64,000 nucleotides of DNA from a virus. This document shows, one piece after another, positions 21,200-46,269 of the stretch. Within the stretch, counting starts at the first letter, position 1; each line of letters begins with the position of its first letter. Both the position numbers and the translations under genes were made by a program. The notes under the pieces were generated by a model. That model saw only the letters and a program-made list of their open reading frames with translations. It ran no database searches and was not told the origin of the DNA. The stretch lies in the IMG/VR virus record IMGVR_UViG_3300009164_000039; one strand, given 5' to 3'.

Positions 21200-21205
21200 C
21201 ATAGT

Positions 21206-21238: not shown

Positions 21239-21242
21239 CTGT

Positions 21243-21563
21243 ATGGATGTCAATAAACTAAAAATTCAAGCTGATCAGGCATTTGATCGAGACACTGCAC
21301 GACTAGCACTAAAAGAAAAGATTGATGCACGACTGTGTGTGGCCATCAATGGCGGACTGTTTCGAGCCACGCCCGAACTCATTGCATTCCTCAGCACCTG
21401 GCCAATAGAAACTGTTTATCTCCAAGACATACACGATCAGCCCATTGAACTAGATCGTGTGCTTGCGCTGGCCCAGCTGAGCCAAGCATATCAATATGCC
21501 ATGAACTCCTGGCACGAAGAACACACTCAACAGCAAAAAATCAGGAAAGGTCGTCATGCGTGA
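21243..21563 (+). CDS. Hypothetical protein
   Basis: 106-aa ORF, first gene of a chain of overlapping ORFs running to 38040. Confidence 0.7.
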   Translation: MDVNKLKIQADQAFDRDTARLALKEKIDARLCVAINGGLFRATPELIAFLSTWPIETVYLQDIHDQPIELDRVLALAQLSQAYQYAMNSWHEEHTQQQKIRKGRHA

Positions 21564-22356
21564 TGGTGCTCTTGTATTTGCTCATGCCACCGCAGTAGAC
21601 TATCTGCAAATGGCTCAGGTTGCGGCTCGACTAGTACGCAGGCATTTGAACATGCCTGTGTGCCTGGTAACAGATGGTGATGTTGAGTCCACAGCATTTG
21701 ATCAAGTTGTGCATGTACCAAAACCCTTAGCAATGAATCAACGCAACTACTGGGTCAACGGTGTCAAAAAAACAGCACCCTGGTACAACAGTACCAGATC
21801 AATGGCGCTGGATCTGTCACCATGGGATCGCACACTGTTGATTGATGCAGATTACTTTGTGATGTCTGACCAATTGAAACTGCTACAAAAAACAAATCTA
21901 GGTTTTGTGTGTTATACAAATGCACATGACATTCGCGACAACAAACCAATTGATGTCAGTTGTGGCTATCGGCACATGGCCTGGGCCACAGTGTGTTGGT
22001 TTGATAGATCAGAGCATTCGCAAGGTGTGTTTGCCATGTGGAAGCACGTGGTAAAAAATTGGGCCTACTATAATCTTGCCAATGACTTTGGCAAACCGGG
22101 CTTGCGTAACGACCATGCGTTAACTATTGCATTAGAAACAATGAGCGGACATTCTGCCACGTATCCAACCATACCAGGATCAATGGCCACAGTTGTACCC
22201 GGTACACAACTGTATGATATTAGAGCAGATGGCACAGTGTTATTCAAAACACATGATAAATTTTCATTAATCAAAAATCAAGACTTGCACATGGTAGACA
22301 AACAGATTGCATGCGACTCGCAATGGTTAGAATTGTTAGAGGCAGTTCATGCGTGA
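21556..22356 (+). CDS. Glycosyltransferase, GT-A fold (GT8-like)
   Basis: DxD motif in 'RTLLIDADYFV'; 'RNDHALTIA' resembles the GT8 'DQ' region. Confidence 0.6.
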   Translation: MRDGALVFAHATAVDYLQMAQVAARLVRRHLNMPVCLVTDGDVESTAFDQVVHVPKPLAMNQRNYWVNGVKKTAPWYNSTRSMALDLSPWDRTLLIDADYFVMSDQLKLLQKTNLGFVCYTNAHDIRDNKPIDVSCGYRHMAWATVCWFDRSEHSQGVFAMWKHVVKNWAYYNLANDFGKPGLRNDHALTIALETMSGHSATYPTIPGSMATVVPGTQLYDIRADGTVLFKTHDKFSLIKNQDLHMVDKQIACDSQWLELLEAVHA

Positions 22357-23221
22357 GTTTGCAGGAGAGCAAGGCTACTTGACATTTGCACAAAACACTG
22401 ACACAGTTGACTATCTACGACTGGCATACGCACAAGCATTGAGTATCAAATGCACACAGAAGATCAACAGTTATGCAGTGATAGTTGATGCATACACAGC
22501 TGAACAAATACAACACTGCCATAGGAAAGTGTTTGACTACATCATAGTACTAGAGCAAGATGATGCCAAAGAACATGACTGGAAGCTGGCAAACGAATGG
22601 CAAGCATTTGATCTTACACCATTTAGAGAAACGGTCAAACTAGAATCCGACATATTGTTTACCAGGAACATTGACCATTGGTGGACAGGCATGCGATCAC
22701 AAGAAGTCACATTCACTACCTGCATACGCAACTATCGCGGCCAAGTAAGCAACAGTAGAGAATATAGAAGATTGTTTGATGAAAGCAATTTACCTGATAT
22801 CTATACCGGCATGTTTTATTTTAGACACAGTCAAACAGCACGTGATCTATTTAATGCAGCCGCCACAGTGTACCAGCAATGGCCCATGTTTAGGGACAGT
22901 GTGTTAACTAGATGCAATAGCAAACACGCCTCAACAGACGAAGCCTTTGCAGTAGCCGCCAAATTAATCGGTGTAGAACGTGTGACTAATCCTGCACTTG
23001 ATTATCCAAGTTTTGTGCATATGAAAGGTGCAGTCAATGGGTTGGGCGCAAATGACAAGTGGAATGAATTGTTGTTTCATCAATGGACAGATGAAATGGA
23101 TCTAAGCATTGAGTTTCTTCGCCAACAGTATCCAGTACACTATTATCAAAAAGATTTTGTCACAGATAAAACAATAGGTGCATATGAACAAAGATTATCC
23201 AAACTTAATAACAGCGTTTGA
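22349..23221 (+). CDS. Glycosyltransferase-like paralogue (GT8-like)
   Basis: 'DLTPFRETVKLESDILF' aligns with 'DLSPWDRTLLIDADYFV' of the upstream gene; 'TDEAFAVA'. Confidence 0.55.
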   Translation: MREFAGEQGYLTFAQNTDTVDYLRLAYAQALSIKCTQKINSYAVIVDAYTAEQIQHCHRKVFDYIIVLEQDDAKEHDWKLANEWQAFDLTPFRETVKLESDILFTRNIDHWWTGMRSQEVTFTTCIRNYRGQVSNSREYRRLFDESNLPDIYTGMFYFRHSQTARDLFNAAATVYQQWPMFRDSVLTRCNSKHASTDEAFAVAAKLIGVERVTNPALDYPSFVHMKGAVNGLGANDKWNELLFHQWTDEMDLSIEFLRQQYPVHYYQKDFVTDKTIGAYEQRLSKLNNSV

Positions 23222-23531
23222 ATCCTCAACATGGCAACCACCGGTACCTGAATATCGGGTGTACTATGACAAGTCTGGAACCATAACAACCAAAACAACA
23301 GCACCATTGATAGGTGACTATATTGTGGTGTCTAGAGAAATGTATGACAGCATTGTGATGCACACACAGTGGCATGTGATAAATGGACAAGTTGAAATAA
23401 GACCGGTTGTGGAAATCCCACGTCATATGTTACAATACACAGCTGAAGGCCCGTACCGATCACTGCCAGGAAATGCTATATTTTTGGTAGATGACGATTA
23501 TGCTGGCTCCACTGATAATTGGACAATATGA
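23184..23531 (+). CDS. Hypothetical protein
   Basis: ORF overlaps both neighbours in the operon; start could be GTG 23178 or ATG 23184. Confidence 0.6.
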   Translation: MNKDYPNLITAFESSTWQPPVPEYRVYYDKSGTITTKTTAPLIGDYIVVSREMYDSIVMHTQWHVINGQVEIRPVVEIPRHMLQYTAEGPYRSLPGNAIFLVDDDYAGSTDNWTI

Positions 23532-24418
23532 AAACTGTAGACATTGCAGACCTAGATGTAATTTTTCTAACCTACGACGAACCTCGCAGAGAAGAGTCAT
23601 GGGCCAAAATCAAAAACATGGTACCTTGGGCCAAGCGTGTGGATGGCATAAAAGGCAGTGATGCCGCACACAAAGCCGCAGGTGCGGCCAGCGATACAGA
23701 TCGCTTTATACTAATTGACGGCGACAATATTCCTGACCCAGAGTTCTTTAACAAACAAATCACACTGGATCCACATCATGAAAGATGTGTGTTGCGTTGG
23801 AGAGCAAGAAACGCCATCAACGGACTCATGTACGGCAATGGTGGACTCAGCTCGTGGACCAAAAGTTTTGTAGAAAGCATGCGCACACACGAAGCCACTG
23901 ATGGTCGTAATGAAACACTGGTGGAGTTTTGCTTTGAACCTGACTACTGGGCCATGCATGACTGCTACTCAACCACGTATCCTAATGCCAGTCCATTTCA
24001 GGCCTGGCGAGCAGGCTTCCGTGAAGGTGTTAAAATGTGTCTGGATCGCGGAGCAAGACCCAACTTGGACGAGTTTGAAAAACGTGCCCACAATCGTAAT
24101 CTTGATCATTTGACCATTTGGCAAAGTGTGGGTGCTGATGCAGAGAATGGCTTCTGGGCCATATACGGTGCTAGACGTGGCACACAAATGACCATGCTTA
24201 CAGACTGGGATTACACCCAGGTACAAGACTTTGATGAACTGGCAAAACTTTGGACTGTGTACCAAAATGACGGCCCTGACGAATGCACTGAAGTAGGCAA
24301 CATGCTACGCAAACGCCTGGGACTTAACATTGTGGATCTAGACCCCGAACCCAGTGCATTTTTCAAACATCACTACAAGTCAAATTTTGTCAATAGAGGA
24401 ATAATGAGTCGTGAGTAA
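23528..24418 (+). CDS. Glycosyltransferase-like protein (GT2-like fold)
   Basis: 'DVIFLTYDEP...RVDGIKG...AHKAA...RFILIDGDN' with DxD; ATGA-coupled to the upstream gene. Confidence 0.6.
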   Translation: MKTVDIADLDVIFLTYDEPRREESWAKIKNMVPWAKRVDGIKGSDAAHKAAGAASDTDRFILIDGDNIPDPEFFNKQITLDPHHERCVLRWRARNAINGLMYGNGGLSSWTKSFVESMRTHEATDGRNETLVEFCFEPDYWAMHDCYSTTYPNASPFQAWRAGFREGVKMCLDRGARPNLDEFEKRAHNRNLDHLTIWQSVGADAENGFWAIYGARRGTQMTMLTDWDYTQVQDFDELAKLWTVYQNDGPDECTEVGNMLRKRLGLNIVDLDPEPSAFFKHHYKSNFVNRGIMSRE

Positions 24419-25793
24419 AAGTGATTTCATGACAGCCGCAGAACAAATGCGCCACACACTAGGCGAAGGTCTTTGCTTGGCCAAATGGAAACAGGTTAGC
24501 TTGCACTTGCCCACAGGATTGAACAATTCATGCTATCATCCTCCACTACACAAGATTCCTGTGGAACTGCTAGCAGGCAATCCTGGCGCACTGCACAATA
24601 CTCCACATAAAAAAGCTCAGCGCAAGATCATGTTGAAACATGAACGTCCAGACGAGTGTAGTTACTGCTGGTCAGCAGAAGACAATGGACAACTCAGTGA
24701 CAGGCACTACAGGTCAGGCGAGGAGTGGGCCGCAGAGGATCTTGACAAGATATTGGCCTCAACCGGAGACGAAGATGCATTACCTAGCTATGTGGAAGTT
24801 AATTTTAATCATGCTTGTAATCTTAAATGTAGCTATTGCAGTCCGCAATTTAGTTCAAGCTGGGCCGCTGAAGTTGCACAACATGGCGGATTCCCTACGT
24901 CCAGCCCTCACAATAGTCCTGAGTATTTTACTGGTAGTCGTCGCCCTATTCCTGCCCGAGAACACAACCCCTACGTTGATACCTTCTGGGAATGGTGGCC
25001 AGAGCTGTACCCCAAGCTAAGACATTTTAGAATGACAGGTGGTGAGCCACTGATGGATCACAATACCTATCGTGTGTTTGAATACGTGCTGACCTTGCCG
25101 CATCCATTGTTGCATTTGGATGTGACCAGCAACTTCAGTGTGGAGCCTGTGTTGTTTGAAAAGTATCTTGGCTATGTCAAACAGTTATGCAACACACAGA
25201 TTGAACACTTCATGCAGTATGTGAGCCTGGACACCTGGGGCAGTCAAGCAGAGTACATACGCAATGGCATGGACTTTGTGAGAGTGTGTGACTATGTGGA
25301 ACGCTATTTAGAGGAAGTACCCAATCGCAACAGCCTTACGTTTATCATGACCATGAACAATCTCAGTGTCACGGGCATGCATGACATGCTGGATTGGATA
25401 CTGGAACTACGTGCCAAGTACAGTAAAACATATCAGCGTGTGTGGTTTGACACACCGTTGCTGAGACAACCACGTTGGCAAAGCCTGCAGATACTGCCGC
25501 CTGCGTATGCCAACAGAATGAAAATAAACCTAGAGTTCATGCGAGCACACCTAATCACAGATGATAGTTTTGTGGGATTCAAAGATTATGAAATACAGCG
25601 CATGGAACGAGACATTGCCTGGATGACTGAGCCACAAGACGCACAAGAAGTCAATCATGCACGTGCTGACTTCTATAGATTCTTCAACGAACACGACCGT
25701 AGACGCGGTACTAACTTTTTACAAACATTTCCAGAGATGAGCCATTTCTGGTGGGAATGCAAACATCATGCCGAAACTGAACAACGAAACTGA
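24411..25793 (+). CDS. Radical SAM protein with N-terminal twitch/SPASM-like domain (1 of 6)
   Basis: CNLKCSYC motif; 'TGGEPL'; N-terminal 'CLAKW...SCYHP...ECSYCW'. Confidence 0.9.
   Translation: MSKSDFMTAAEQMRHTLGEGLCLAKWKQVSLHLPTGLNNSCYHPPLHKIPVELLAGNPGALHNTPHKKAQRKIMLKHERPDECSYCWSAEDNGQLSDRHYRSGEEWAAEDLDKILASTGDEDALPSYVEVNFNHACNLKCSYCSPQFSSSWAAEVAQHGGFPTSSPHNSPEYFTGSRRPIPAREHNPYVDTFWEWWPELYPKLRHFRMTGGEPLMDHNTYRVFEYVLTLPHPLLHLDVTSNFSVEPVLFEKYLGYVKQLCNTQIEHFMQYVSLDTWGSQAEYIRNGMDFVRVCDYVERYLEEVPNRNSLTFIMTMNNLSVTGMHDMLDWILELRAKYSKTYQRVWFDTPLLRQPRWQSLQILPPAYANRMKINLEFMRAHLITDDSFVGFKDYEIQRMERDIAWMTEPQDAQEVNHARADFYRFFNEHDRRRGTNFLQTFPEMSHFWWECKHHAETEQRN
24775..25020 (+). CDS. Overprinted 81-aa two-TM membrane protein (+1 frame inside radical SAM gene 1)
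   Basis: GGAG at 24765-24768, 6 nt before ATG 24775. Hydrophobic segments 'LILIMLVILNVAIAV' and 'ALTIVLSILLVVVALFL'. Local switch of the host gene to T-ending codons. Confidence 0.55.
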   Translation: MHYLAMWKLILIMLVILNVAIAVRNLVQAGPLKLHNMADSLRPALTIVLSILLVVVALFLPENTTPTLIPSGNGGQSCTPS

Positions 25794-27123
25794 TATAGAA
25801 TTCAAACGCAGAGTGATTGACATCAAGTCAACCAGCTTCTGCGGAGCCAAATGGTACAATGCTACCATATGGTTGGGTAGTGGACAAACAACCAGCTGCC
25901 ACCACCCACCTGCACACTCAATTGACTTGCAAGAAATAAAAACCAATCCTGCCGCACTGCACAATACCACTCGTAAAAAAGCTGATCGTGAAATGATGCA
26001 AAAAGGTGAACGCCCAGCAGGCTGTGAATACTGCTGGAAGATAGAAGACATGGGCCCTGAGTCTGTCAGTGACCGTGTGTACAAAACTGTAATACATTCC
26101 GAGGAGGACCTAAATGTTGCATTTGCCAGACCCAGCTACACAGACTTCAACCTTCGCACGTTGGAAATTGCGTTTGACAGAACTTGTCAGTTCGCTTGTT
26201 CTTATTGCAACCCTGCTTTTAGTAGCACATGGGTTAAGGACATTGGTAATAACGGGCCATACACAGGATTGGTATCTGACGGCAGGAACCATTTTACTCA
26301 CGCTCATGATAGTAGTCAACTGTATAAATTCAATGAAGTTAATCCGTACGTGGAAGCATTCTTCCAGTGGTGGGAAACAGATCTCCACCAGACACTAACA
26401 GAGCTTCGCATCACCGGAGGCGAGCCACTCATGTCAGGCTACACCTGGCAGCTGATTGACTGGTTCAAAGCCAATCAAGGCAAGAGCCATACCAAACTGG
26501 CCATCAACAGCAATCTTGGCATGGAGCCGGTCAAGATGCTGGATTTTATTCGGCGTGTGGAAGGTATTCCGCATCTGGAAATCTACACCAGCAACGAAGC
26601 ACTGGGCGCACAAGCAGAGTATATTCGTGACGGATTGAATTACCGGCAATGGCTCAGCAACATGGAGATGTTGATCAATTCAGGCGCAGTAAATCAAATG
26701 CATGTGATGTGTACAGTCAATGCATTGTGTCTGGAAAGCCTGCCTGAATTTTTAGATGAATTGGTTGTGTTGAAGAAAAAGTACAGCAGAGACTTTCCTA
26801 ACTTCACGTTGAACATCTTGCGTTTTCCTAGTTTTCAAAGTCCACTGGTATTACCATATGAGATTAGACAAAAGCATGCAGACCGCCTGGCACAGTTTTT
26901 GGTACGCCACAAAGGACAAAACTACTTGCATGAGCATGAGATAAACCACGTGGAACGTCTAGTAAAGTATTTGCTTGAAGTAGATACACCTCATGCAGAA
27001 GCATTTGAAATGCCTAAATTGTTGAATGACTTCCGACAGTTTTATATCCAATATGATCAGCGCCGCGGAAAAAACTTTGTAAATACATTCCCGGCTCTCA
27101 AGGATTGGTATGAAACACTCTAA
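25768..27123 (+). CDS. Radical SAM protein with N-terminal twitch-like domain (2 of 6)
   Basis: CQFACSYC; 'ITGGEPL'; N-terminal 'FCGAKW...SCHHP...GCEYCW'; close paralogue of 24411..25793. Confidence 0.9.
   Translation: MPKLNNETDIEFKRRVIDIKSTSFCGAKWYNATIWLGSGQTTSCHHPPAHSIDLQEIKTNPAALHNTTRKKADREMMQKGERPAGCEYCWKIEDMGPESVSDRVYKTVIHSEEDLNVAFARPSYTDFNLRTLEIAFDRTCQFACSYCNPAFSSTWVKDIGNNGPYTGLVSDGRNHFTHAHDSSQLYKFNEVNPYVEAFFQWWETDLHQTLTELRITGGEPLMSGYTWQLIDWFKANQGKSHTKLAINSNLGMEPVKMLDFIRRVEGIPHLEIYTSNEALGAQAEYIRDGLNYRQWLSNMEMLINSGAVNQMHVMCTVNALCLESLPEFLDELVVLKKKYSRDFPNFTLNILRFPSFQSPLVLPYEIRQKHADRLAQFLVRHKGQNYLHEHEINHVERLVKYLLEVDTPHAEAFEMPKLLNDFRQFYIQYDQRRGKNFVNTFPALKDWYETL
26114..26398 (+). CDS. Overprinted 94-aa two-TM membrane protein (+1 frame inside radical SAM gene 2)
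   Basis: GAGGAGG at 26101-26107, 6 nt before ATG 26114, which follows an in-frame TAA. TM-like 'LVSSLVLIATLLLVAHGL' and 'YLTAGTILLTLMIVVNCI'. Confidence 0.6.
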   Translation: MLHLPDPATQTSTFARWKLRLTELVSSLVLIATLLLVAHGLRTLVITGHTQDWYLTAGTILLTLMIVVNCINSMKLIRTWKHSSSGGKQISTRH

Positions 27124-28324
27124 GACATTTTGCATATTGCCATGGATACATCTTCATGCATTCCCTGATGGCCGTGCGTATCCTTGTTGTATGGGAGAAT
27201 ATCACTCACCCATTGGCGATCTTAAAACACACACAATGGAGCAGGTGTGGAATCAAGCGCCACTAGCTACCATGCGAAAGAACATGCTACAGAATGTCAA
27301 GTCCAAAGAGTGTGTCAAATGCTATGAGCTAGAAGAAAATGGTTTTGTCGGCATGCGACAAAGCATGAACCGTGCGTTTGCACATCACATGCCATTGGCA
27401 GATCAAACACTTCCTGATGGCACACTGCCTGACTTTCGACTACGCTACTATGACATTAGATTTAGTAATCTGTGTAATTTCCGTTGCCGCAGTTGTGGCA
27501 GTGTGTTTTCCAGCAACTGGTATGATGACGAAGTTGCCGCACATGGTCAAGTACAGCATCCCAAGATCATGTTTGCTGGCCAACACAAACAAGACATGTG
27601 GGAGCAAATGCAACCGCATATACCACATCTAGAACAAGTGTACTTTGCAGGCGGCGAACCCTTGATCATGGAAGAACATTATCGTGTGCTAAAAGAACTA
27701 GTACAGAGAGAAATGTTTGATGTCAGACTGGTATACAACACCAACTTTAGTGAATTAGATTTCAAAGATGAAAGTGTACTGGAGTTATGGAAACTGTTTA
27801 AGAATGTCAGCGTTGGTGCTAGTCTAGACGCCAGCGGCACACGAGCAGAGTACATTCGCAAAGGCACAGTATGGCACAAGATTGTACACAATAGAGAACG
27901 CATGTTGTCTGTGTGCCCTCAAGTTGACTTCTATATAAGTAGTACCGTGGGCATACTAAATGTATGGCACTTGCCAGACTTTCATCGTGAATGGGTTGAC
28001 TTGGGATTGATACGCCCGCAAGATTTCAACATCAACATGTTACAATCACCTGAATGGCAACGTGCAAATCATCTGTCACCGGAGTTGAAACAACAAGTGA
28101 AAGAACGCATACACAATCACCTTGAGTGGCTTGGTCCATTGGATCACATGAATCGTGCAACCAATGGTTATCGGAGTATTATAAAGTTTATTGATCAACC
28201 TGCTGATGCAGATCAACTAAAAGAGTTTTTTAGAGAAACTGATCAATTTGATCAAATACGCAATGAGAGTTTTGATGCTACCTTTCCTGAACTGACTGGA
28301 TTGAGAGACCATGCTACCAAATAA
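27110..28324 (+). CDS. Radical SAM protein with N-terminal twitch domain (3 of 6)
   Basis: 'FCILPW.H...DGRAYPCC...IGDL...ECVKC', then CNFRCRSC and 'FAGGEPL'. Confidence 0.9.
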   Translation: MKHSKTFCILPWIHLHAFPDGRAYPCCMGEYHSPIGDLKTHTMEQVWNQAPLATMRKNMLQNVKSKECVKCYELEENGFVGMRQSMNRAFAHHMPLADQTLPDGTLPDFRLRYYDIRFSNLCNFRCRSCGSVFSSNWYDDEVAAHGQVQHPKIMFAGQHKQDMWEQMQPHIPHLEQVYFAGGEPLIMEEHYRVLKELVQREMFDVRLVYNTNFSELDFKDESVLELWKLFKNVSVGASLDASGTRAEYIRKGTVWHKIVHNRERMLSVCPQVDFYISSTVGILNVWHLPDFHREWVDLGLIRPQDFNINMLQSPEWQRANHLSPELKQQVKERIHNHLEWLGPLDHMNRATNGYRSIIKFIDQPADADQLKEFFRETDQFDQIRNESFDATFPELTGLRDHATK

Positions 28325-29525
28325 CAATATATGTGTGCTACCGTGGATGAGCATAGAAGTAACCCCAATGGGTAACAGTCGCCCGTGTTGTTTGGCCATT
28401 GATGAAATACCAGACAACACTGGTAAATCCTACGACCTTACCGCAGTGCCTATTCGTGAAGTATATCACAGCAAATACATGCAGGATCTAAGGCAACAGT
28501 TTCGTGCAGGAGAAAAACCCAGCACATGCACACGATGCTGGACAGAAGAATCTGCAGGACGTACCAGCAAACGTATGAACATGTTGGCCAAATTCAACAA
28601 TGATATCCAATCAATTGAATGGGACACAGACACCCCTGAACAATTATGGTTCTTGGATCTTAAACTAGGCAACATCTGTAATCTCAAATGTCGTATCTGT
28701 GGATCCTGGAGCAGTAGTAAATGGGCACAAGAAGAACTAGACTACTACCCAACAGCCACTAGAGAAGAACGCAAAAAACATTCAGCGTATGTATGGCTAC
28801 GTCAGGGTCAGTGGCCACGTGAAAGCATTGACTTTTGGAACAACATTGATCAAGTGCTGCCTGGTGTGCGCTACTATGAATTTACCGGTGGCGAACCATT
28901 CTTGATTCAAGAACATTTTGATTTGTTACAACGCACAGTAGATCAAGGCTATGCATATCTTGTGGATGTACACTACAACACCAATGGCACACAGTATCCA
29001 GAAGCCGCAGTGGAGATGTGGAAAAAGTTCAAGCATGTGAACATTGCATTCAGCATTGACGATCTTGGCGCACGATTTGAATATCAGCGTTATGGCGCCA
29101 ACTGGGCAGAAGTGGAACAAAATCTAGACCGTTACTTAGAGTTAAGCAAAACACACACCAACATCACGCTACAAATGTGTATAACTGCAAATATACAAAA
29201 CGTATTGTACTTGCCTGAAGTCATGGACCATGTGTGGGCAAAAGGTTTTCGTGACGTATACATCAACATGTTACATGATCCAATTCAACTCAACATCAAG
29301 CAAATGACTCCAGTGGCGATTGAACTGGTATGTAACAGACTAAATCAAGTTCCGACCAGCAACAGATTCTATCGTGATTTCCAACAGTTAATAACGGTGA
29401 TACAAACAGGTACTGGTAGTGATGGTCAAGAGTTTTGCAAAACTATCAAACAAGGTGACGTGTATCGCAAACAAAATTTTGCTGACCATCACCCAGACAT
29501 AGCAAAGGCCATGGGATATGAATAA
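28311..29525 (+). CDS. Radical SAM protein with N-terminal twitch domain (4 of 6)
   Basis: 'ICVLPW...RPCC...CTRCW', then CNLKCRIC and 'FTGGEPF'. Confidence 0.9.
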   Translation: MLPNNNICVLPWMSIEVTPMGNSRPCCLAIDEIPDNTGKSYDLTAVPIREVYHSKYMQDLRQQFRAGEKPSTCTRCWTEESAGRTSKRMNMLAKFNNDIQSIEWDTDTPEQLWFLDLKLGNICNLKCRICGSWSSSKWAQEELDYYPTATREERKKHSAYVWLRQGQWPRESIDFWNNIDQVLPGVRYYEFTGGEPFLIQEHFDLLQRTVDQGYAYLVDVHYNTNGTQYPEAAVEMWKKFKHVNIAFSIDDLGARFEYQRYGANWAEVEQNLDRYLELSKTHTNITLQMCITANIQNVLYLPEVMDHVWAKGFRDVYINMLHDPIQLNIKQMTPVAIELVCNRLNQVPTSNRFYRDFQQLITVIQTGTGSDGQEFCKTIKQGDVYRKQNFADHHPDIAKAMGYE

Positions 29526-33798: not shown

Positions 33799-33893
33799 GT
33801 TGGCTTAAAAAAATATACAACAGAATTAAAATGGAAATTGCTTATCGCAAGCGATTAAAAGAGTTGCGTAAACGAGATCCATTTATCTACTGA
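33795..33893 (+). CDS. 32-aa basic peptide MSWLKKIYNRIKMEIAYRKRLKELRKRDPFIY (not in the ORF track)
   Basis: SD AGGAGA at 33784-33789; ATGA overlap with the upstream stop; TGA at 33891-33893, 1 nt before the next ATG. Confidence 0.7.
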   Translation: MSWLKKIYNRIKMEIAYRKRLKELRKRDPFIY

Positions 33894-33894
33894 C

Positions 33895-34587
33895 ATGAAA
33901 AAAATACTTGTTCTAGCCTGTAGTAGCGGATTGGGCGTCGAATGCGAAGATGTAATCAATCATTGCTGGCCCAACATACTAGGAGACCTTACTAACACCG
34001 CAGTAACCAATGCCTCTGAAGCTGGCGGTAGCAATGACATGATGTATCGCAAAGCACTGTCAATGACTGCAACTGAATCGTATGACCTGGTATTGATTGC
34101 ATGGACAAACATTGATCGCATGGAAGTGTATTTTAACGAAGAGATTGTGTCTAATAGATTACCTGACGTACTAATCAGTGAAAAATTTCCTCGTGTGCAA
34201 GGACCTGGGCCAGTCAGTGTGTCTCATCATTGGAGTGACTTGCCTTGGATTGAAAAATACTATGGCATGCACTATAATGAACGTTACTTACTAGAGCGAT
34301 GGTTGCACCAAGCAATCACACTTCAAGAATATTTCAAAGCCAAAAAACAGCCATTTGCTTACATATCAAACTTTGGAAACACTCAGTATCTAAAAAATCA
34401 TACAGACATTCCTATGTTAAAGATGCTGGATGTAAAATCTTGGATTGGTAACTGGCCTGGGTCAACTTTACGCGACTGGGGTGCACCAATTGGCGTACAC
34501 AAATATGGTCATTTTACGTTAGACGCACATAAATTTATTGCAGAAAAAATACATGAGCATATTAGGAATCGCGGCTGGCTTTCATGA
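33895..34587 (+). CDS. Divergent SGNH-like protein
   Basis: 'LVLACSSGLG', 'NASEAGGSN', 'VLIAWTNIDRME', C-terminal 'GHF...AH'; same layout as 31958..32719. Confidence 0.5.
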   Translation: MKKILVLACSSGLGVECEDVINHCWPNILGDLTNTAVTNASEAGGSNDMMYRKALSMTATESYDLVLIAWTNIDRMEVYFNEEIVSNRLPDVLISEKFPRVQGPGPVSVSHHWSDLPWIEKYYGMHYNERYLLERWLHQAITLQEYFKAKKQPFAYISNFGNTQYLKNHTDIPMLKMLDVKSWIGNWPGSTLRDWGAPIGVHKYGHFTLDAHKFIAEKIHEHIRNRGWLS

Positions 34588-36034
34588 TGCCGCACTAGCG
34601 GTAATTGACAAGCATGGGGACATTGTATTTGCTGGACACAGTGAGCGTTACAGCAAAATCAAACACGACAAAAATTTATCGCCAGGCTTGATTGCCGAAG
34701 TATGCAAATTTGATATACATGAAATAGCATATTATGAACGTCCTTGGGCACAACAGTTGCGTAGATTGTACACCGGCGAAGGAGTAGAGTGGAACAAGCT
34801 CACAGTCCGGCAGATATTAAAAAAACAAATTAACGAGTTCAGTGCATTCTCTGGACCAGTAGTAGCATATCCGCATCATCTGAGTCATGCGGCAGCAGGA
34901 TTTCAAACAAGCCCATTTACCCGTGCCACAGTGGTTGTGATAGACGCTGTAGGTGAATGGGACACAATAACCATCTGGGGCGCAGAATACGATCGCAATG
35001 GACACGCACAGTACAAGAAGTTATGGCAACAAGGTTACCCGCATAGTATAGGATTGTTCTACAGTGCAATGACCCAGCGAGTAGGGTTGAAGCCCCTGGA
35101 CGAAGAATACATTTTGATGGGCATGGCAGCGTATGGTGAGCGTGGCTTTGGTGACCTATTAAAAATGGACATGATAGAATCAGAATTTGACATTCGATTC
35201 AAACACAATCTACACACTGGTATAGATAAAAAATATCTAGCCTACATCAGTGACTTTGATATAGCTGCCGGCGCACAAGATCTTGTGGAAACACTCATAC
35301 TCAATGTTATGCTACGTGCTAAGAAGTTTGGGTGGAGTAGCAATCTGGTGTACGGTGGAGGTGTTGCGCTCAACTGTGCCGCCAATAGATTTTTAGGAGA
35401 ATATTTTGATAACATTTGGATTATGCCTTGTCCTGGTGATGCTGGTTCTAGTCTGGGGGCCGCCGCTGTTAGTTTCCGTGGTTGTATTAATTGGACTGAT
35501 GCTTGTCTTGGGCATGATATACCTGGCGACTATCCTGTTAATGATGCCGTGGCTGCTCTTTTGCGTGGTGATATTATTGGTGTGGCGAGCGGTCGAGCCG
35601 AGTTCGGCCCGAGAGCGTTGGGAAACAGAAGTCTCCTCGCAGACCCAAGAGGAACAGAAATCAAAGACAAAGTAAATGAAATCAAACGTAGACAAAAGTT
35701 TAGACCCTTTGCACCCGTTGTATTGGAAGAGATGGCTGATCAGTATTTTACTATGCCTCGCGGGTGGGATCGCAGTCGGTACATGCAGTCAGTCGCTGAC
35801 TGTAGGCATCCTGAGTTATTTCCTGCTATTGTTCACGCTGACGGAACTAGTCGTGTTCAGACCGTACCGAAAGATGGAAGCGGAATTAGAGAGCTCCTTG
35901 AAAAATGGTTCGTGTTAACTGATTGTCCTATGTTGCTAAACACCAGCCTAAACATACGTGGCGAACCTATGGTCAATGATCGTGCTGACGCAGACCGCTT
36001 TGAAAAGTTATATGGCATAAAGGTCTACAGTTAA
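34553..36034 (+). CDS. O-carbamoyltransferase, NodU/CmcH/TobZ family
   Basis: 'GFHDAA', 'HHLSHAA', 'VIDAVGE', 'EYILMGMAAYG', 'GRAEFGPRALGNRSLLADP', 'FRPFAP', 'HADGTSRVQTV', 'LLNTSLN'. Confidence 0.95.
   Translation: MSILGIAAGFHDAALAVIDKHGDIVFAGHSERYSKIKHDKNLSPGLIAEVCKFDIHEIAYYERPWAQQLRRLYTGEGVEWNKLTVRQILKKQINEFSAFSGPVVAYPHHLSHAAAGFQTSPFTRATVVVIDAVGEWDTITIWGAEYDRNGHAQYKKLWQQGYPHSIGLFYSAMTQRVGLKPLDEEYILMGMAAYGERGFGDLLKMDMIESEFDIRFKHNLHTGIDKKYLAYISDFDIAAGAQDLVETLILNVMLRAKKFGWSSNLVYGGGVALNCAANRFLGEYFDNIWIMPCPGDAGSSLGAAAVSFRGCINWTDACLGHDIPGDYPVNDAVAALLRGDIIGVASGRAEFGPRALGNRSLLADPRGTEIKDKVNEIKRRQKFRPFAPVVLEEMADQYFTMPRGWDRSRYMQSVADCRHPELFPAIVHADGTSRVQTVPKDGSGIRELLEKWFVLTDCPMLLNTSLNIRGEPMVNDRADADRFEKLYGIKVYS
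35406..35675 (+). CDS. Overprinted 89-aa multi-TM protein (+1 frame inside the carbamoyltransferase), holin-like architecture
   Basis: AGGAGA at 35395-35400, 5 nt before TTG 35406. First 60 residues contain no charged amino acid; charged C-terminal tail. Confidence 0.6.
   Translation: MITFGLCLVLVMLVLVWGPPLLVSVVVLIGLMLVLGMIYLATILLMMPWLLFCVVILLVWRAVEPSSARERWETEVSSQTQEEQKSKTK
35676..35918 (+). CDS. Overprinted 80-aa two-TM protein coupled to 35406..35675
   Basis: TAA (35673-35675) is directly followed by ATG (35676). TM-like 'WLISILLCLAGGIAVG' and 'LTVGILSYFLLLFTLTELVVF'. Confidence 0.5.
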   Translation: MKSNVDKSLDPLHPLYWKRWLISILLCLAGGIAVGTCSQSLTVGILSYFLLLFTLTELVVFRPYRKMEAELESSLKNGSC

Positions 36035-38040
36035 TGTATGATGTATTTTATACCGGCACAGCACCTGGCGTGTTTGCACACGAACGCAGTGCCAACAACA
36101 TTGAACACGCACAGCAACTGAGTCGTACACGTTACTTCTGGTGGGTAACTGCACATTGTGACTACACCGACTTTGATTTTTACTTCACACCTGTACCTTG
36201 GCAAGGAGACTTCACGCATGTATGGCCCACACAATGGAAAGAGTTCTTTGGTGCATACCTTGTGCCCACCAACAGTAAACAACTAAACTATCACCACCAC
36301 AGTGAAGTGTTACCTCCGCGGCAGCATCCAGAGCACTATACAAAACTAATCAACTGCGAGTTTGATACTGAGTGGGTTCCGCATCCTTGGGACCCACCTT
36401 ACATCTATGTGTTTGGTAACCAGTGGTACCCAGCAGAGAAAATGCCCACTGTTGAATATCATGCGCCGGGTGCAACTGAGCGCAAGTTCATGCCGTGGCC
36501 ACGTGCGCAACTGGTTCCTGACACTACATTATGGACAGTGCCAGAAGGCATTGATCCCGGCGACGTGGATTTTTCATGGGTGCCCGATCCGGGCTCACCT
36601 CCATATATCTATCAGTTTGCCACACAGCATCAGAAAACAGGTGGCCCACAATATCGTATGCCCGGTGCAACTGAAGTAAAGTATGTGGAACAAGTAAAGG
36701 TACGCACCAGTCGTGTGGCTACAGCCGTTTATGAAATTGATCACAGTGACGGCAACACCGGGTATGTTCCAAACATTACTCGACGTATTCGATTCTTTGA
36801 CAACTACAAGGACACACTGATACGTCTGGCAACCAGTATAGGCGATGAACATGACTTTGTGTGGATATGTAGCAGTGCGTGTGACTACACAAACTTTGAC
36901 TTCACATGGCACCCAGAACAATGGCAAGCTACTATGTTGCATGTGTTCCCAAGCAACGACCAAAAGTTTGGAGACACATTCTTCATGCATGTGCCCACCT
37001 TTAGAGCACGTGCTGAACAGTACGAATTGTTAGATTGGTATGACCTAAACTTCTGCACCGACCAGTTAGTGCCACGCAGACCATTTCCATGTGTTGAATA
37101 TTCTGGATCCAGTGTTGTACCAGTTATTCGCGAGCATGAGTTTTTGGCCCCGTATACGTTATTTCAGCATACCTTGTACAGTTCAACACAAGTACATGCT
37201 AGTCCGAGCCTGTGGAGTAAAAAACACCGTGAACTGATTACATTTAGCGCAGGAAACAGCGCCGCACTAGTGCCTAAAGATGTAAAACAACACCTTGAGA
37301 CACAGGTTTATGACTACCCTTGGATCAAGAAAAGTAACGATCGCTTGCCCGAACTGCCACAAGACATTGTGTTTATCAGTTACGATGAATTGAATGCAGA
37401 TCAAAACTATCACAATCTTGTGAGCCGTTTTTCAAATGCCAAACGAGTACACGGTGTTGAAGGAATGGTTGCGGCACTAGAAGCAGCCGCACGTGCTAGC
37501 ACAACTGATTGGTTCTATGCAGTGTTTGCCAAGACACAGGTACATGAGTCATTTGTGTTTGACTTTGCACCAGATCGTTTCCAACAACCCAAGCATTACA
37601 TATTCTATGCTATCAATGCAGTGAATGATCTAGTGTATGGAGAAATGGGCATCATCTTATACAACCGTCAAATGGTACTGGACGGTCCTGCTGAACTGGG
37701 CATTGACTATACCATGAGCTTTCCAAATGAAACCATACCGCAAATCAGTGCTTACGGTAACTTCAACACAGATCCATATCAGACCTGGCGTACTGCATTC
37801 CGTGAAACTGCAAAACTATGTTTGTTCCAGTATCAGACACCCAGCGTGGAAACAGAACACAGACTTGGTACATGGTTGTCACACGCACGTGGTGCGCATG
37901 CTGAGTGGGCATTGCGTGGTGCGCAGGACGGAAAACAATTCTTTGAAGAAGTAGGTGCAGACGAAGCGCAACTAAAAGCAATGTTTAGTTGGAAATGGTT
38001 ACGTGAACGCTACTGTAGTCTTTACGAAAAAACTTCTTGA
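36034..38040 (+). CDS. Modular glycosyltransferase-like protein (668 aa)
   Basis: C-terminal domain from about 37363 is paralogous to 23528..24418 ('DIVFISYDE...KRVHGVEG...AA.AS.TDWF', 'TWRTAFRE..K'); repeated N-terminal modules. Confidence 0.6.
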   Translation: MYDVFYTGTAPGVFAHERSANNIEHAQQLSRTRYFWWVTAHCDYTDFDFYFTPVPWQGDFTHVWPTQWKEFFGAYLVPTNSKQLNYHHHSEVLPPRQHPEHYTKLINCEFDTEWVPHPWDPPYIYVFGNQWYPAEKMPTVEYHAPGATERKFMPWPRAQLVPDTTLWTVPEGIDPGDVDFSWVPDPGSPPYIYQFATQHQKTGGPQYRMPGATEVKYVEQVKVRTSRVATAVYEIDHSDGNTGYVPNITRRIRFFDNYKDTLIRLATSIGDEHDFVWICSSACDYTNFDFTWHPEQWQATMLHVFPSNDQKFGDTFFMHVPTFRARAEQYELLDWYDLNFCTDQLVPRRPFPCVEYSGSSVVPVIREHEFLAPYTLFQHTLYSSTQVHASPSLWSKKHRELITFSAGNSAALVPKDVKQHLETQVYDYPWIKKSNDRLPELPQDIVFISYDELNADQNYHNLVSRFSNAKRVHGVEGMVAALEAAARASTTDWFYAVFAKTQVHESFVFDFAPDRFQQPKHYIFYAINAVNDLVYGEMGIILYNRQMVLDGPAELGIDYTMSFPNETIPQISAYGNFNTDPYQTWRTAFRETAKLCLFQYQTPSVETEHRLGTWLSHARGAHAEWALRGAQDGKQFFEEVGADEAQLKAMFSWKWLRERYCSLYEKTS

Positions 38041-39100
38041 TATAGTCGCACACAGAAATCACATCACGGTGGCTCATTTGTGCATGTACAGGCAAACTCA
38101 AGCAACTGGCAGCTAGGTTTTCACTCACTGGTAAACTGAGATTGGTTAGGTATACCGGCTGTTGATGCATGGCACGTGGAAACTGTATGCCTGTTTCTAC
38201 GCCATGGTATGCCAGATACTGTTTCAATTCATCACGTTCATTGGTAGTGATCACAAACTGATTGTACACATGACTGCTCACAGGGTTAGTTGCTGGCAAA
38301 TCAATTTCTGTCACAAATGCCAGCTCTCCGCGATATACACTGGCATGCTCTTGCCTACGTAGATTCCAATCATGCAAGTACGGTATCTTGGCATGTAGCA
38401 CAGCCGCTTGCAAGCCATCCAAGCGTTCATTCCAACCACGCACAAGATGCTTGTACTTTTCCAGCCTTCCGTGATCACGTAGCATCCTGACCAAGTGACA
38501 CATCTCCTCACTGCCTGTTACTGCACCAGCATCGCCCATGGCACTGAGATTCTTGCCTGGATAAAAACTAAAGCAAGTGGCATACACTAGGTCACCAACA
38601 AAACGATCAATATATTGGCACCCTGCACTTTGTGCGGCATCTTCAATGAGTGGGATATCCCCGGCGATAGTCTTGAGTGCATCAATGTCTAGTGTTTGTC
38701 CGTACAAGTCAACAAACACAATAGCCTTGGTACTGGTATTGAGTAACCCAGCCACGGCGGCTAGGTCTAGAGTGTAGTAACGTGGATCAATATCAACAAA
38801 CACAGGCGTAGCACCCAATTGGCTGACCACTTCAGCAGTGCTGATAAAACTCATTGTTGGCACAATCACTTCATCACCGGGCCCTATGCCCAAGCTATCC
38901 AATGCCAGCATCAGCGCACTGGTACCACTGCTGACTCCAGCGCAGGCTCTGCTTTGTGTGTGCTCTGCCCAGTCCTGTTCAAATGCCAGTACCTCTGGAC
39001 CATTGATGTAACTGCTGTTCTTGATGCAACGGGCCATGGCAGTGTCCACGTCCTTGCGACACTCTAGGTACTCTTTGTGTAGGTCTGCGTACTTGATCAT
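37985..39100 (-). CDS. DegT/DnrJ/EryC1/StrS PLP sugar aminotransferase, DesV/FdtB-like (3-aminotransferase group)
   Basis: 'SSGTSAL', 'GDEVIVP', 'EDAAQ', 'FSFYPGKNLSAMGDAGAV', 'KYKH...GWNERLDGLQAAVL'. ATG 39100 is ATGA-coupled to the upstream gene. Confidence 0.85.
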   Translation of the reverse strand: MIKYADLHKEYLECRKDVDTAMARCIKNSSYINGPEVLAFEQDWAEHTQSRACAGVSSGTSALMLALDSLGIGPGDEVIVPTMSFISTAEVVSQLGATPVFVDIDPRYYTLDLAAVAGLLNTSTKAIVFVDLYGQTLDIDALKTIAGDIPLIEDAAQSAGCQYIDRFVGDLVYATCFSFYPGKNLSAMGDAGAVTGSEEMCHLVRMLRDHGRLEKYKHLVRGWNERLDGLQAAVLHAKIPYLHDWNLRRQEHASVYRGELAFVTEIDLPATNPVSSHVYNQFVITTNERDELKQYLAYHGVETGIQFPRAMHQQPVYLTNLSLPVSENLAASCLSLPVHAQMSHRDVISVCDYIKKFFRKDYSSVHVTISN

Positions 39101-40470
39101 GCTCGTGACACCACTGGGCCTTGACTCCAAGGAATGCCAAAATCCAAATCGTCTCTTGCTTGATTTATCAGTATGCTAACCACATGATCAAATGCATCCA
39201 AAAAGCCCACATCCATTGGCATGGGCTTGACTGTCTTGTGTTGATCGACCCAGTGTTGCGTCACACGGGTAACACTGCTGTCTTCTACGTTGCCAATGAT
39301 GTAACGGTCAGCACCTGGGCGATCCAGGAACCCTGTTTCGTGATACATGTACACATCACCTTTTACATCCACTGCCACGCTCACTTGCGGAAAGCCGTGT
39401 GGCACCAGTTCCTGCCAGTCTATCATACGCAGTTGCCCAACATCACGACCGTAACGCAAGGGTTCTAGCGCATAGCCAAAATCAAAATGTGTGGGCCACT
39501 GGTGTTGAAACTCGCTTACTTGTGCAAACATACCCATGAGCTTTTCACGTTCTTCTGCACCCAGCACACGTATGTTCTGACTGAAGTCTTCACGTAGTGT
39601 AACAAAGTCCACGGGCCTGTTGGCAGTGCGATTGATATGTTCTATTACCTTTAGCAGTTCTAATACGTCTTGACTGTGGCCTGGCAGGATGATGTAGTTG
39701 ACGCCGACCTTGACTCCGGGTGCGGCATTGATATATCCAATGATGTTTTTGATCACGTGATCAAAACTCTGACGATTCTTGGTAACTGCAAATGCTTTGT
39801 TTGCCGTGGTACCGTATAAACTAAAACGCACAGCTTCTAGATCTCGCATGCCTGGGTGCTTGTGCAGATACGCATCAGTCATCATGTTGCCATTGGTATA
39901 CAACTGCATCTTGAATCCACGGCCAGCACCGTAACTGATAATCTCTCCAAGGTACGGATTGGTTAACGGCTCTAGGCCGCCGCTGATGCGAAAGCGGTCC
40001 TGCCACATGGGATCGGTTTTGGGGTCTTGGTCAATTATTTGAAAGAACAAGTCACGGCCGATTTGTGCATAGTCTGTGTCATACTTGGCCACAGGGTTAC
40101 GTCCACAAAAGCCACAATAGAACATGCAACTGAGTCCTGTATAAAGACCCACACGATTAGGATATGCCCAGTGATGATTGAATGCTGCCTGTAGTGTGCC
40201 AGATGCCAGCAACGGTGCAATGGTATTGGTCCAGTACTTGGTGCCTACACCACTGTGCAGTATCTGTTGTTGTGCCCACGCACTGGCACGTATTTCTGCA
40301 ATGGCTGATAGGTGACTTTGTTTGTCAATTGCAAAACGTTCAGCAATGGATCGTTGAGTAACAAACGGATCGTTACTCATTGCATCTACAATTATTTTTG
40401 CATGATAGCTCAGTTCAGTTGGCGCAACTAAATCTGATACTGCGCTGTGGTGTTGATAACCTAAGCGCAT
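39097..40470 (-). CDS. desII: Radical SAM dTDP-4-amino-4,6-dideoxy-D-glucose ammonia-lyase homologue (DesII)
   Basis: 'YW.NTI.PL', 'VGLY.G.SCMFYCGFC', 'SGGLEPLTNP', 'LYTN', 'SLYG', 'YIILPG', 'DFVTLREDFS', 'DFGYAL', 'PQV.V.VD..GDVY.Y.E.GF...GA.RYI.G', 'D.FD.VV' match Streptomyces DesII motifs in order over the whole length. Confidence 0.85.
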   Translation of the reverse strand: MRLGYQHHSAVSDLVAPTELSYHAKIIVDAMSNDPFVTQRSIAERFAIDKQSHLSAIAEIRASAWAQQQILHSGVGTKYWTNTIAPLLASGTLQAAFNHHWAYPNRVGLYTGLSCMFYCGFCGRNPVAKYDTDYAQIGRDLFFQIIDQDPKTDPMWQDRFRISGGLEPLTNPYLGEIISYGAGRGFKMQLYTNGNMMTDAYLHKHPGMRDLEAVRFSLYGTTANKAFAVTKNRQSFDHVIKNIIGYINAAPGVKVGVNYIILPGHSQDVLELLKVIEHINRTANRPVDFVTLREDFSQNIRVLGAEEREKLMGMFAQVSEFQHQWPTHFDFGYALEPLRYGRDVGQLRMIDWQELVPHGFPQVSVAVDVKGDVYMYHETGFLDRPGADRYIIGNVEDSSVTRVTQHWVDQHKTVKPMPMDVGFLDAFDHVVSILINQARDDLDFGIPWSQGPVVSRA

Positions 40471-40473
40471 GAC

Positions 40474-41433
40474 TTATCCTTGATGGTAAGGAAAGTTTTT
40501 AAGCCAGTTGTAGTACAGTTGAAATCCTTCTTCAATGTCTACCTTGGGATCAAACCCAAAGTCTTGTCTTGCGGCATTGATGTTCAGCGCACCACGGCTA
40601 GGGAAGTCTGCATCTTTTTCACGCACTTCAATTGTGCCACGGCCAACAATCTTGCATGCCAGTTGTGCGGCCTCGTACAAGGTCTTGCTGTGGCTCTTGG
40701 TAATGTTGTAGATCCGGTTGTTGGATTCTTTGCTGACAGTGGCAGCAACAATACCGTCAGCGGCATCTCCCACATAGGTAAAATCCAGGGTTTCATTCAT
40801 GCCGTTGACCTTTAGTGTACCACCGCGCATGGCAGTGAGCACAAACTTGCTGATCACACGGTCCTCCACATCCAGTTCACCGTACACAGCACTGGGTCGA
40901 ATAACAGTGTATACCATGCCGGTCTTGCGAGCATAATCTTTAACCAACCATTCTCCGGCCAGCTTCATGATACCGTACTGTCCTTGTGGCTGACAGAGGT
41001 AGTCTTCTGTGACATCGTTATCAAAGTCTCCGTAGACCATGCTAGAGCTGATGTACACAAATTTGCACACTTGAAAATCTTTTGCACATTCCAACAGGTT
41101 AAGCAAACCTTCACTCATGGTTCTAGAACCCAGTTGTGGATTGACGTTGACTACTTTCTGGCGCGGGAAACTTGCAAGATGAATCACTGTGTCTGGCCGG
41201 TAGGTTTCAAAGATCCAACGCATGCCATCACGGTCACTGATGTCCACAGCATGTATACGAGTTGTGGCAATCTTCTTTAGTCGTTCAGGCATTAGGCTGT
41301 TGAGTTCAGCTTGTGGCACAAGTCCATACGTGGTACGTGTGTCTGTAATAAACACTTCGTGCCCTTGGGCTTCAAGTCGTTGCACCACATTGTGCCCAAT
41401 CAATCCCAATCCGCCAGTTACTAGTATTCTCAT
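40474..41433 (-). CDS. NAD-dependent epimerase/dehydratase (extended SDR)
   Basis: 'TGGLGLIG', 'HLAS', 'SSSMVYG', 'YGIMK' (YxxxK), 'LDFTYVGD'. Confidence 0.9.
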   Translation of the reverse strand: MRILVTGGLGLIGHNVVQRLEAQGHEVFITDTRTTYGLVPQAELNSLMPERLKKIATTRIHAVDISDRDGMRWIFETYRPDTVIHLASFPRQKVVNVNPQLGSRTMSEGLLNLLECAKDFQVCKFVYISSSMVYGDFDNDVTEDYLCQPQGQYGIMKLAGEWLVKDYARKTGMVYTVIRPSAVYGELDVEDRVISKFVLTAMRGGTLKVNGMNETLDFTYVGDAADGIVAATVSKESNNRIYNITKSHSKTLYEAAQLACKIVGRGTIEVREKDADFPSRGALNINAARQDFGFDPKVDIEEGFQLYYNWLKNFPYHQG

Positions 41434-46268: not shown

Positions 46269-46269
46269 T

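Follow-up and report, generated by a model that had tools for sequence, protein, structure and literature searches.

A conserved radical SAM and carbamoyltransferase operon behind the tail fibre genes of a giant freshwater phage, a candidate pathway for a modified virion glycan

What does a phage make with six radical S-adenosylmethionine (SAM) enzymes, several glycosyltransferase (GT)-like proteins and an O-carbamoyltransferase encoded directly behind its tail fibre genes? This question is raised by positions 21243 to 41433 of the IMG/VR record IMGVR_UViG_3300009164_000039, a stretch of 64,000 nucleotides (hereafter the window) from an uncultured freshwater T4-like giant phage. A first-pass annotation had proposed that this locus builds a heavily modified glycan on virion proteins. 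Our analysis leads to a related reading, to which we give a probability of about 0.4: a soluble pathway would build a radical-edited, carbamoylated or acylated glycan on the fibre proteins of the virion. The part of the earlier proposal that stands is carried by enzymes of carbohydrate type, the linkage to fibre genes and the lack of membrane segments; the promoter, which looks early, and the low weight of gene adjacency as evidence tell against it. No published characterisation of this cassette was found in the literature, and a nucleotide search of cultured phages with the 20-kb region gave no match.

The enzyme set encoded by the locus has a carbohydrate flavour, with GT-A-like proteins, a nucleoside diphosphate (NDP)-sugar aminotransferase and epimerase, an O-carbamoyltransferase (encoded by the gene called CT here) and SGNH proteins. 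On the plus strand, 18 genes are chained between 21243 and 38040, nearly every one overlapping or abutting its neighbour. This chain converges on a minus strand block composed of a DegT aminotransferase, a DesII-like radical SAM enzyme and a short-chain dehydrogenase/reductase (SDR). The coupled chain, the convergent block, the six twitch-domain radical SAM genes, the two SGNH-like genes and the O-carbamoyltransferase had all been described in the first-pass annotation and were borne out here. Of the four GT-like genes that it had listed, the assignment holds reasonably well for I and E but stays tentative for B and C. Two genes were absent from that account, a 32-codon peptide gene (33795-33893) and the conserved gene G (32704-33798). 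No membrane segment was predicted in any operon protein, and the operon proteins are therefore taken as cytoplasmic.

The conservation of the cassette was examined in 80 fetched IMG/VR loci related to it, to which all counts out of 80 refer. The order (E) R1 R2 R3 R4 R6 G (F H) peptide CT I, with the convergent aminotransferase and SDR genes, is near-constant in these loci, the variable members being R5 (17/80), F (28/80) and H (34/80). Counted without these, the core order R1-R2-R3-R4-R6-G-peptide-CT-I is shared by more than 80 uncultured phage contigs. The operon of the window follows this structural block:

9 to 20860, plus strand: upstream structural block, with a giant protein of 3726 amino acids (aa), g02 and four fibre-like genes; PHROG tail-fibre and virion hits

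By tblastn, the fibre-like genes match tail fibres of P1 and of Klebsiella phages. In a synteny survey of relatives, on which the first-pass annotation had staked its proposal, the linkage to structural genes was kept: fibre genes lie directly upstream of the first genes of the operon (A-B-C; B-C in L091) in all 10 of the 10 loci that reach far enough. These are five near-complete relatives (338-374 kb; genomes G001-G005, behind loci L007, L010, L028, L041 and L058), four phage contigs binned in metagenome-assembled genomes (MAGs) and the cultured Ralstonia jumbo phage RsoM2USA. The giant protein is visible upstream in the five near-complete relatives and in RsoM2USA. The latter phage (MG752970) carries a mini cassette, open reading frames (ORFs) 354-348, which encodes A, B, C, a D-like protein, E, one radical SAM enzyme and an E/I-like protein; no CT, no peptide and no G were found in it. 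Mass spectrometry identified the product of its giant ORF361 as part of the virion (PMC8504454), and RsoM2USA would give access to the cassette in culture. In the window, the last fibre-like gene and A are separated by a 109-aa ORF with a Pro/Thr-rich middle (20870-21199, plus strand), for which the relatives examined have no homologue.

The pathway that we propose would start from host NDP-hexoses, which would be turned into amino and deoxy sugars by an epimerase-type SDR and a DegT aminotransferase, joined in this phage alone by a DesII-like deaminase. Transfer of these sugars onto an acceptor would fall to the GT-A-like proteins B, C and E and the multi-domain protein I. Five conserved radical SAM enzymes with an N-terminal twitch domain, plus R5, would each perform one distinct hydrogen-abstraction step on the sugar units, the candidate reactions being oxidation, epimerisation, dehydration or carbon-carbon chemistry, as for BtrN and DesII on sugars. 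CT, with a 32-residue SxtK-like peptide and the SGNH proteins, would add or trim O-carbamoyl and O-acyl groups. Since the surface-polymer and DNA routes are disfavoured (see below), the cytoplasmic acceptors left are virion proteins, a soluble small molecule or a peptide. We favour virion proteins because the fibre adjacency is conserved, even in the reduced RsoM2USA form, and the acceptor would most probably be a surface protein of the virion whose gene lies just upstream, namely the giant protein or one of the fibres. A more specific version of this pathway, in which a fibre-attached glycan or a glycosylated peptide undergoes serial radical editing by five to six dedicated N-terminal-twitch enzymes and a soluble SxtK-like micro-protein partners CT, is a good deal more doubtful. 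If true, it would define a new class of virus-made glycoconjugate.

The radical SAM genes form the centre of the chain:

24411 to 25793, plus strand: R1, N-terminal-twitch radical SAM enzyme; NF033640 320 bits; in 72/80 loci, median identity 62%
25768 to 27123, plus strand: R2, N-terminal-twitch radical SAM enzyme; NF033640 301 bits; in 74/80 loci, median identity 64%
27110 to 28324, plus strand: R3, N-terminal-twitch radical SAM enzyme; NF033640 404 bits; in 78/80 loci
28311 to 29525, plus strand: R4, N-terminal-twitch radical SAM enzyme; NF033640 330 bits; in 76/80 loci
29518 to 30675, plus strand: R5, divergent radical SAM enzyme, variable member; SPASM at residues 52-114, CxxxCxxC kept
30672 to 31961, plus strand: R6, N-terminal-twitch radical SAM enzyme, the most conserved of the set; NF033640 287 bits; in 76/80 loci, median identity 72%

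R1-R4 and R6 all exceed the curated cut-off of NF033640 (N_Twi_rSAM in NCBIfam; 287-404 vs. 170 bits). R5 scores 28.9 bits, below this cut-off, and is not a member of the family; it is a divergent copy with an N-terminal SPASM/twitch domain. The cysteines C122, C126 and C129 of the CxxxCxxC motif, together with C8, C26 and C71, are invariant across all six paralogues, whose identity to R3 is just 18-27%. In Pfam, SPASM spans residues 8-71 or 8-83, N-terminal of Radical_SAM (in R3, residues 8-71 and 117-249, respectively). The five near-complete relatives contain from 6 to about 18 copies above the NF033640 cut-off per genome of about 350 kb, and many of these copies are solitary between core genes, placed like mobile or moron genes. 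We found no paper on N-terminal-twitch radical SAM enzymes in phages, the sole relevant remark being a 2017 note that counts 12 radical SAM genes in one T4-like genome. A MAG of Bdellovibrionales (L098, 50-11197) carries three or four N-terminal-twitch radical SAM genes with a B12-binding radical SAM gene, an amidohydrolase gene and several unknown genes, and the phage cassette may have a cellular cousin in this bacterial cluster. The contexts of N_Twi_rSAM genes in Cytophagales and Bdellovibrionales were also considered as a guide to the substrate and rejected as uninformative.

Downstream of the radical SAM genes, the operon encodes the carbamoyltransferase, the peptide, the SGNH-like proteins and G:

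31958 to 32719, plus strand: F, 253-aa SGNH-like protein, variable member; GDS block I, invariant G48/N51 and H227/H233
32704 to 33798, plus strand: G, 364-aa conserved core protein; in 73/80 loci, 65 invariant columns
33795 to 33893, plus strand: basic peptide gene of 32 codons, product ending in DPFIY; start overlaps the stop of G (ATGA), end 1 nt before H
33895 to 34587, plus strand: H, 230-aa SGNH-like protein (DUF6071), variable member; PF19547 31.8 bits vs. a cut-off of 27
34538 to 36034, plus strand: CT, O-carbamoyltransferase of the TobZ/NodU/NovN type; Carbam_trans_C 160 bits, Carbam_trans_N 130 bits

CT scores far above the Pfam cut-offs for both domains (24 bits for Carbam_trans_N, 27 bits for Carbam_trans_C) and, among PDB entries, matches NovN, GdmN and TobZ (E from 1e-52 to 1e-34). 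Against the NodU equivalog NF041651 it reaches 129.5 bits, below the cut-off of 1000. F shows relatedness to H (hhalign 99.8%), and both keep the Ser of block I, the Asn of block III and the His of block V. In H, S10, N47 and H212 are invariant, and its profile matches the GDSL structure 4rsh (E 1.2e-5). Neither F nor H matches Pfam Lipase_GDSL. For G, the AlphaFold2 (AF2) model has a predicted local distance difference test score (pLDDT) of 86.6 and finds no match in the PDB with Foldseek. A cyclophilin-like barrel with a helical insert was considered for G and set aside, the VIA matches being weak (Z 7-8) and within background.

The peptide gene, which has a GGAG 7 nt upstream, was found in 80/80 related loci. 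All 58 distinct full-length peptides of relatives (58/58) have 33 aa, and in relatives the gene is start-stop coupled to CT. Over the last 12 codons, 10377 synonymous vs. 1425 non-synonymous pairwise differences were counted. Synonymous differences therefore far exceed non-synonymous ones, which argues that this ORF is translated and strongly constrained. Each of the five near-complete relatives has exactly one peptide and one CT, vs. 6-18 N_Twi_rSAM copies, and the peptide gene abuts CT or an SGNH gene in every locus inspected.

The end of this peptide recalls the bacterial SxtK-like peptides of DUF5989, which also end in PFIY: in an hhalign comparison with DUF5989, the last five residues alone align (P 8e-4). 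The phage peptide is basic and charged throughout, without the central transmembrane helix of DUF5989 members, and the DUF5989 hidden Markov model (HMM; PF19451) hits neither this peptide nor anything in the five relative genomes at E <= 10. Bacterial DUF5989 genes have a CT homologue within 1.5 kb in 5/6 loci and adjoin SxtJ-like genes in two loci. The chromosome of Engelhardtia mirabilis encodes a 528-aa protein (L108:1498-3084, minus strand) with a GDSL/AlgX-type SGNH domain and a C-terminal DUF5989 segment; through this fusion, SxtK-type peptides are physically tied to SGNH enzymes. A carbamoyltransferase, two small proteins and a GDSL protein likewise follow each other in the sxtI-J-K-L arrangement (PMC2679770). 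We read the phage peptide, from its sequence and neighbours, as a probable soluble counterpart of SxtK that would have lost the membrane helix and would form a unit with CT and the SGNH proteins.

The convergent block on the minus strand would supply the sugars:

37985 to 39130, minus strand: DegT/DnrJ/EryC1-type sugar aminotransferase; PF01041 320 bits vs. a cut-off of 19.8
39097 to 40470, minus strand: DesII-like radical SAM enzyme; TIGR04426 343.5 bits over nearly the full length vs. a cut-off of 450, CxxxCxxC present
40474 to 41433, minus strand: extended SDR, NDP-sugar 4-epimerase-like; PF01370 154 bits; in 48/80 loci, median identity 59%

The best NCBIfam matches of the aminotransferase are PseC, ArnB and DesI, all under the equivalog cut-offs. 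A second DegT/DnrJ/EryC1 aminotransferase (58733-59848, minus strand; 189 bits) is encoded amid small early-type genes, distant from the operon. Because the TIGR04426 score falls below the equivalog cut-off, we label the radical SAM enzyme of this block only as DesII-like. It has a counterpart in 0/80 related loci and looks like a recent addition to the sugar block of this phage. The best PDB match of the SDR is the UDP-glucose 4-epimerase 4zrm; it has the catalytic-site Ser-Ser-Ser-Met-Val-Tyr-Gly and YxxxK. An assignment as an RmlB-type 4,6-dehydratase was rejected, with a TIGR01181 score of 118 vs. 365 bits and the Asp-Glu pair of 4,6-dehydratases missing.

The proteins that would transfer these sugars, with the small proteins A and D, are encoded at the two ends of the plus strand chain:

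21243 to 21563, plus strand: A, 106-aa soluble protein, first gene of the unit; identity 26-40% in the five near-complete relatives and RsoM2USA ORF354
21556 to 22356, plus strand: B, 266-aa candidate GT8-like/nucleotide-diphospho-sugar transferase; ESM Atlas leads to PF03407/PF01501 clusters, 0.96
22349 to 23221, plus strand: C, 290-aa candidate GT8-like transferase; ESM Atlas leads to PF01501/PF03407, 0.96
23178 to 23531, plus strand: D, 117-aa protein, partly conserved; tblastn hits in 2/5 upstream loci
23519 to 24418, plus strand: E, 299-aa protein with a GT-A-like domain and a DGD motif; hhalign to the C-terminal domain of I 99.6%, E 5e-25
36034 to 38040, plus strand: I, 668-aa multi-domain protein, with N-terminal E-like motif repeats, then a C-terminal GT-A-like domain; in 64-70/80 loci

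A has no Pfam or NCBIfam family and no PqqD match, and D has no hit in these family collections. The ESM Atlas leads of B and C (0.95-0.96, 165-174 shared features) are language-model feature leads; B has no Pfam or NCBIfam hit, and neither protein has a PF01501 or PF03407 hit in Pfam. The alignment of B shows a D-A-D motif, and its homologues occupy the equivalent position in relatives and in RsoM2USA (ORF353). The Atlas model of C has a predicted template modelling score (pTM) of 0.92, its nearest structures are unnamed phage clusters, and C shares 30% identity with RsoM2USA ORF352. No relatedness was detected between B and C, nor between either of them and I. In E, D67 and D69 of the D-G-D motif are invariant, and identity with RsoM2USA ORF350 is 41%.

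For I, the AF2 model (pLDDT 80.8) matches mimivirus R699 (top), K4CP, WrtF, SunS and RmlT with Foldseek (E from 4.5e-5 to 1e-3, probability up to 1.0). Residues 442-578 give Z 8-9 with VIA and a root-mean-square deviation of 2.8-4.4 over 123-134 aligned residues, a match common to nucleotidyltransferases of the IspD/MobA type. As modelled, the C-terminal domain of I is a GT-A/nucleotide-diphospho-sugar-transferase fold. None of 19 homologues of I has a meaningful Pfam hit, and the profiles of G, I, E and F have no significant match among PDB sequences. The I-like ORFs of the five near-complete relatives range from 561 to 1075 aa, apparently through differing numbers of E-like repeat modules.

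Then, we considered when the operon might be transcribed. The first-pass annotation had placed a late promoter before the chain, which was not confirmed: a T4 late promoter of the TATAAATA type is absent at 21150-21243, and ATAAATA was not found before 21243 either. The window has a TTGACA box at 21196-21201 and no good -10 box. In 8/9 relatives, a sigma-70-type promoter (-35 box, 17-nt spacer, TATAAT) stands just before A, and in three of them (L084, L085 and L094) it is preceded by a GC-rich hairpin and a T run. The small minus strand genes of the window are preceded by the same type of sigma-70-like promoter. Counts of sigma-70 and terminator patterns in the region were not above those of shuffles. 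The operon looks like its own transcription unit and is possibly transcribed early, as far as promoter motifs can tell. In L084, L085, L087, L089 and L094, TATAAT is located about 8-11 nt before the ATG of A, and A may be translated from a nearly leaderless mRNA in relatives.

Several of these results weigh against a glycan on virion fibres. The fibre adjacency is weak functional evidence, because T4-like gene order is conserved in general. With sigma-70-type promoters in relatives, sometimes behind a terminator hairpin, the unit would not be co-transcribed with the fibres and would perhaps be early. Neither a nucleotidyltransferase nor a 4,6-dehydratase is encoded at the locus. The GT assignment of B and C comes entirely from language-model leads, and the C-terminal domain of I lacks a DxD motif, with no acidic pair where E has D-G-D. 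On the side of the radical SAM enzymes, a profile of R3 orthologues gave no significant match among PDB sequences, hence no solved relative, and we know of no NF033640 enzyme with a known substrate and of no tested member. The richest relative genome has up to about 13 further N_Twi_rSAM copies between replication and packaging genes. In G004, such copies are found flanked by gp47-like and gp46-like genes, close to a DnaB-like helicase gene and close to the terminase gene (e.g. G004:C1:191531-192700), and the neighbourhoods of these scattered copies are without homologues of GT, SGNH or CT genes. NF033640 is thus not intrinsically tied to glycans, since the extra copies sit without sugar enzymes nearby.

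Part of the same evidence could be explained by a small, diffusible molecule, namely a pseudo-oligosaccharide of aminoglycoside-like or nucleoside-like type, which we consider unlikely but the most serious of the alternatives. Radical SAM dehydrogenases or dehydratases and the DegT enzyme would produce amino-sugar or cyclitol units, the GTs would link these units, and CT would add a carbamoyl group to the result, as TobZ does with tobramycin. The closest solved relatives of CT (NovN, GdmN and TobZ) all act on small-molecule antibiotics, and the pairing of a twitch radical SAM enzyme with a DegT transaminase is the logic of BtrN/BtrR in 2-deoxystreptamine synthesis. Moreover, every enzyme is soluble, a sigma-70-type promoter would suit early production, and the Bdellovibrionales locus, with its B12 radical SAM and amidohydrolase genes, resembles a natural-product cluster. 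However, the window contains no scaffold synthase, exporter or self-resistance gene. The place directly behind the fibres is strictly kept, even in RsoM2USA, which is poor in radical SAM genes, and the multi-domain repeats of I suit a polymeric or protein acceptor better.

It is improbable, in our view, that the 32-residue peptide is itself the substrate, i.e. a ribosomal precursor comparable to PqqA or MftA whose C-terminal residues would be cross-linked or edited by the radical SAM enzymes before glycosylation and carbamoylation. Mycofactocin is indeed glycosylated, SPASM/twitch radical SAM enzymes are typically peptide maturases (the phage enzymes have weak NCBIfam matches to PapB, SkfB, StsB and PqqE), and the Foldseek matches of I include the peptide S-glycosyltransferases SunS and ThuS. 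The peptide is also the most conserved element of the cassette, and strong purifying selection acts on its invariant D-P-F-I-Y end. This conservation, however, spans the whole peptide instead of separating a leader from a variable core, and bacterial SxtK-like peptides encoded next to carbamoyltransferases share the PFIY end. In number, the phage peptide follows CT one-to-one, not the 6-18 radical SAM copies of each genome, and its gene is always coupled to CT or an SGNH gene. A precursor role is thus the less likely alternative for the peptide, because no PqqD-like element was found (the PqqD HMM has no hit in the five genomes, i.e. no PqqD or RiPP recognition element), no peptidase family occurs in the operon, and the RsoM2USA mini cassette has a radical SAM gene without a peptide hit.

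A modification of host envelope precursors or of the host surface, which might block superinfection or stop progeny from sticking to debris, has a similarly low standing. Phages are known to encode GTs and O-acyl modifiers that act on the O-antigen, and an early-type promoter would fit. The bacterial CT-SxtJ-SxtK-SGNH modules are also membrane-associated and resemble polysaccharide modifiers, one being fused to AlgX-like and GDSL domains. The phage peptide, however, has lost the transmembrane helix of DUF5989 members. Assembly of a host-surface polymer is less likely because the operon has no membrane segment, flippase, polymerase or polyprenyl-phosphate (lipid-carrier) transferase.

Finally, glycan hypermodification of phage DNA is very improbable: diverse virus GTs decorate hydroxymethylated bases (Pyle 2024, as cited in PMC12619734) and the end of the operon adjoins thyA, but this gene, next after the sugar block, encodes a full-score thymidylate synthase followed by dihydrofolate reductase (DHFR) in an ordinary td-frd pair and was rejected as a hint of DNA modification, the operon showed no family that binds DNA or flips bases, and two cassette carriers (G003 and G004) have no ThyA-family gene and the other relatives just one, so that no dCMP/dUMP (deoxycytidine/deoxyuridine monophosphate) hydroxymethylase would be available to provide a hydroxymethylated base. 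Downstream of the td-frd block (44909-47394, minus strand), a gene for a DUF2201 putative metallopeptidase/VWA protein adjoins an AAA ATPase gene, as a MoxR-like pair.

The glycan on virion proteins thus remains our preferred, if tentative, reading. The cassette is abundant, with at least 7981 metagenomic homologues of R3 and 120 IMG/VR relatives of CT (identity 62-72%). Solving it would provide a first function for NF033640, for G and for the SxtK-like peptides that accompany carbamoyltransferases, including that of the saxitoxin cluster, and could shed light on how giant phages from aquatic habitats modify their fibres or the cells that they infect.

Giant eukaryotic viruses and mycobacteriophages are known to encode glycosylation systems of their own; to our knowledge, no described virus glycosylation system is coupled to a radical SAM block. 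The glycans of mycobacteriophage virions and mimivirus fibrils have in common with this locus virus GT-A and sugar-nucleotide enzymes encoded beside structural genes, whereas these systems are without a radical SAM battery, a carbamoyltransferase and a micro-peptide. Among phages, the precedent for glycosylated virions is that of mycobacteriophages (Freeman et al. 2023, PMC10527164, as cited in PMC12619734). With the BtrN and DesII systems, the locus shares the pairing of twitch or plain radical SAM enzymes with DegT-type aminotransferases, and a DesII-like gene is present in the window as well; BtrN, however, carries its twitch domain at the C-terminal side, the phage enzymes at the N-terminal side.

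CT has both Pfam domains in common with TobZ, NovN, GdmN and the NodU entry, but it is shorter (498 vs. 576-702 aa) and, unlike them, always paired with a peptide of 32-33 aa. The sxt module and DUF5989 loci likewise place a carbamoyltransferase next to an SGNH/GDSL protein and a small peptide with a PFIY end; the sxt module has SxtJ, of which no homologue was seen in the phage. RsoM2USA keeps the same order, from the giant virion protein and fibre through A, B, C, the D-like protein and E to the N-twitch radical SAM enzyme and the E/I-like protein, but with one radical SAM gene only and with genes annotated as hypothetical. Finally, R1-R4 and R6 share with the NF033640 family its score, the N-terminal Cys-rich twitch domain and CxxxCxxC, and here these enzymes form five fixed orthologous groups within one operon.

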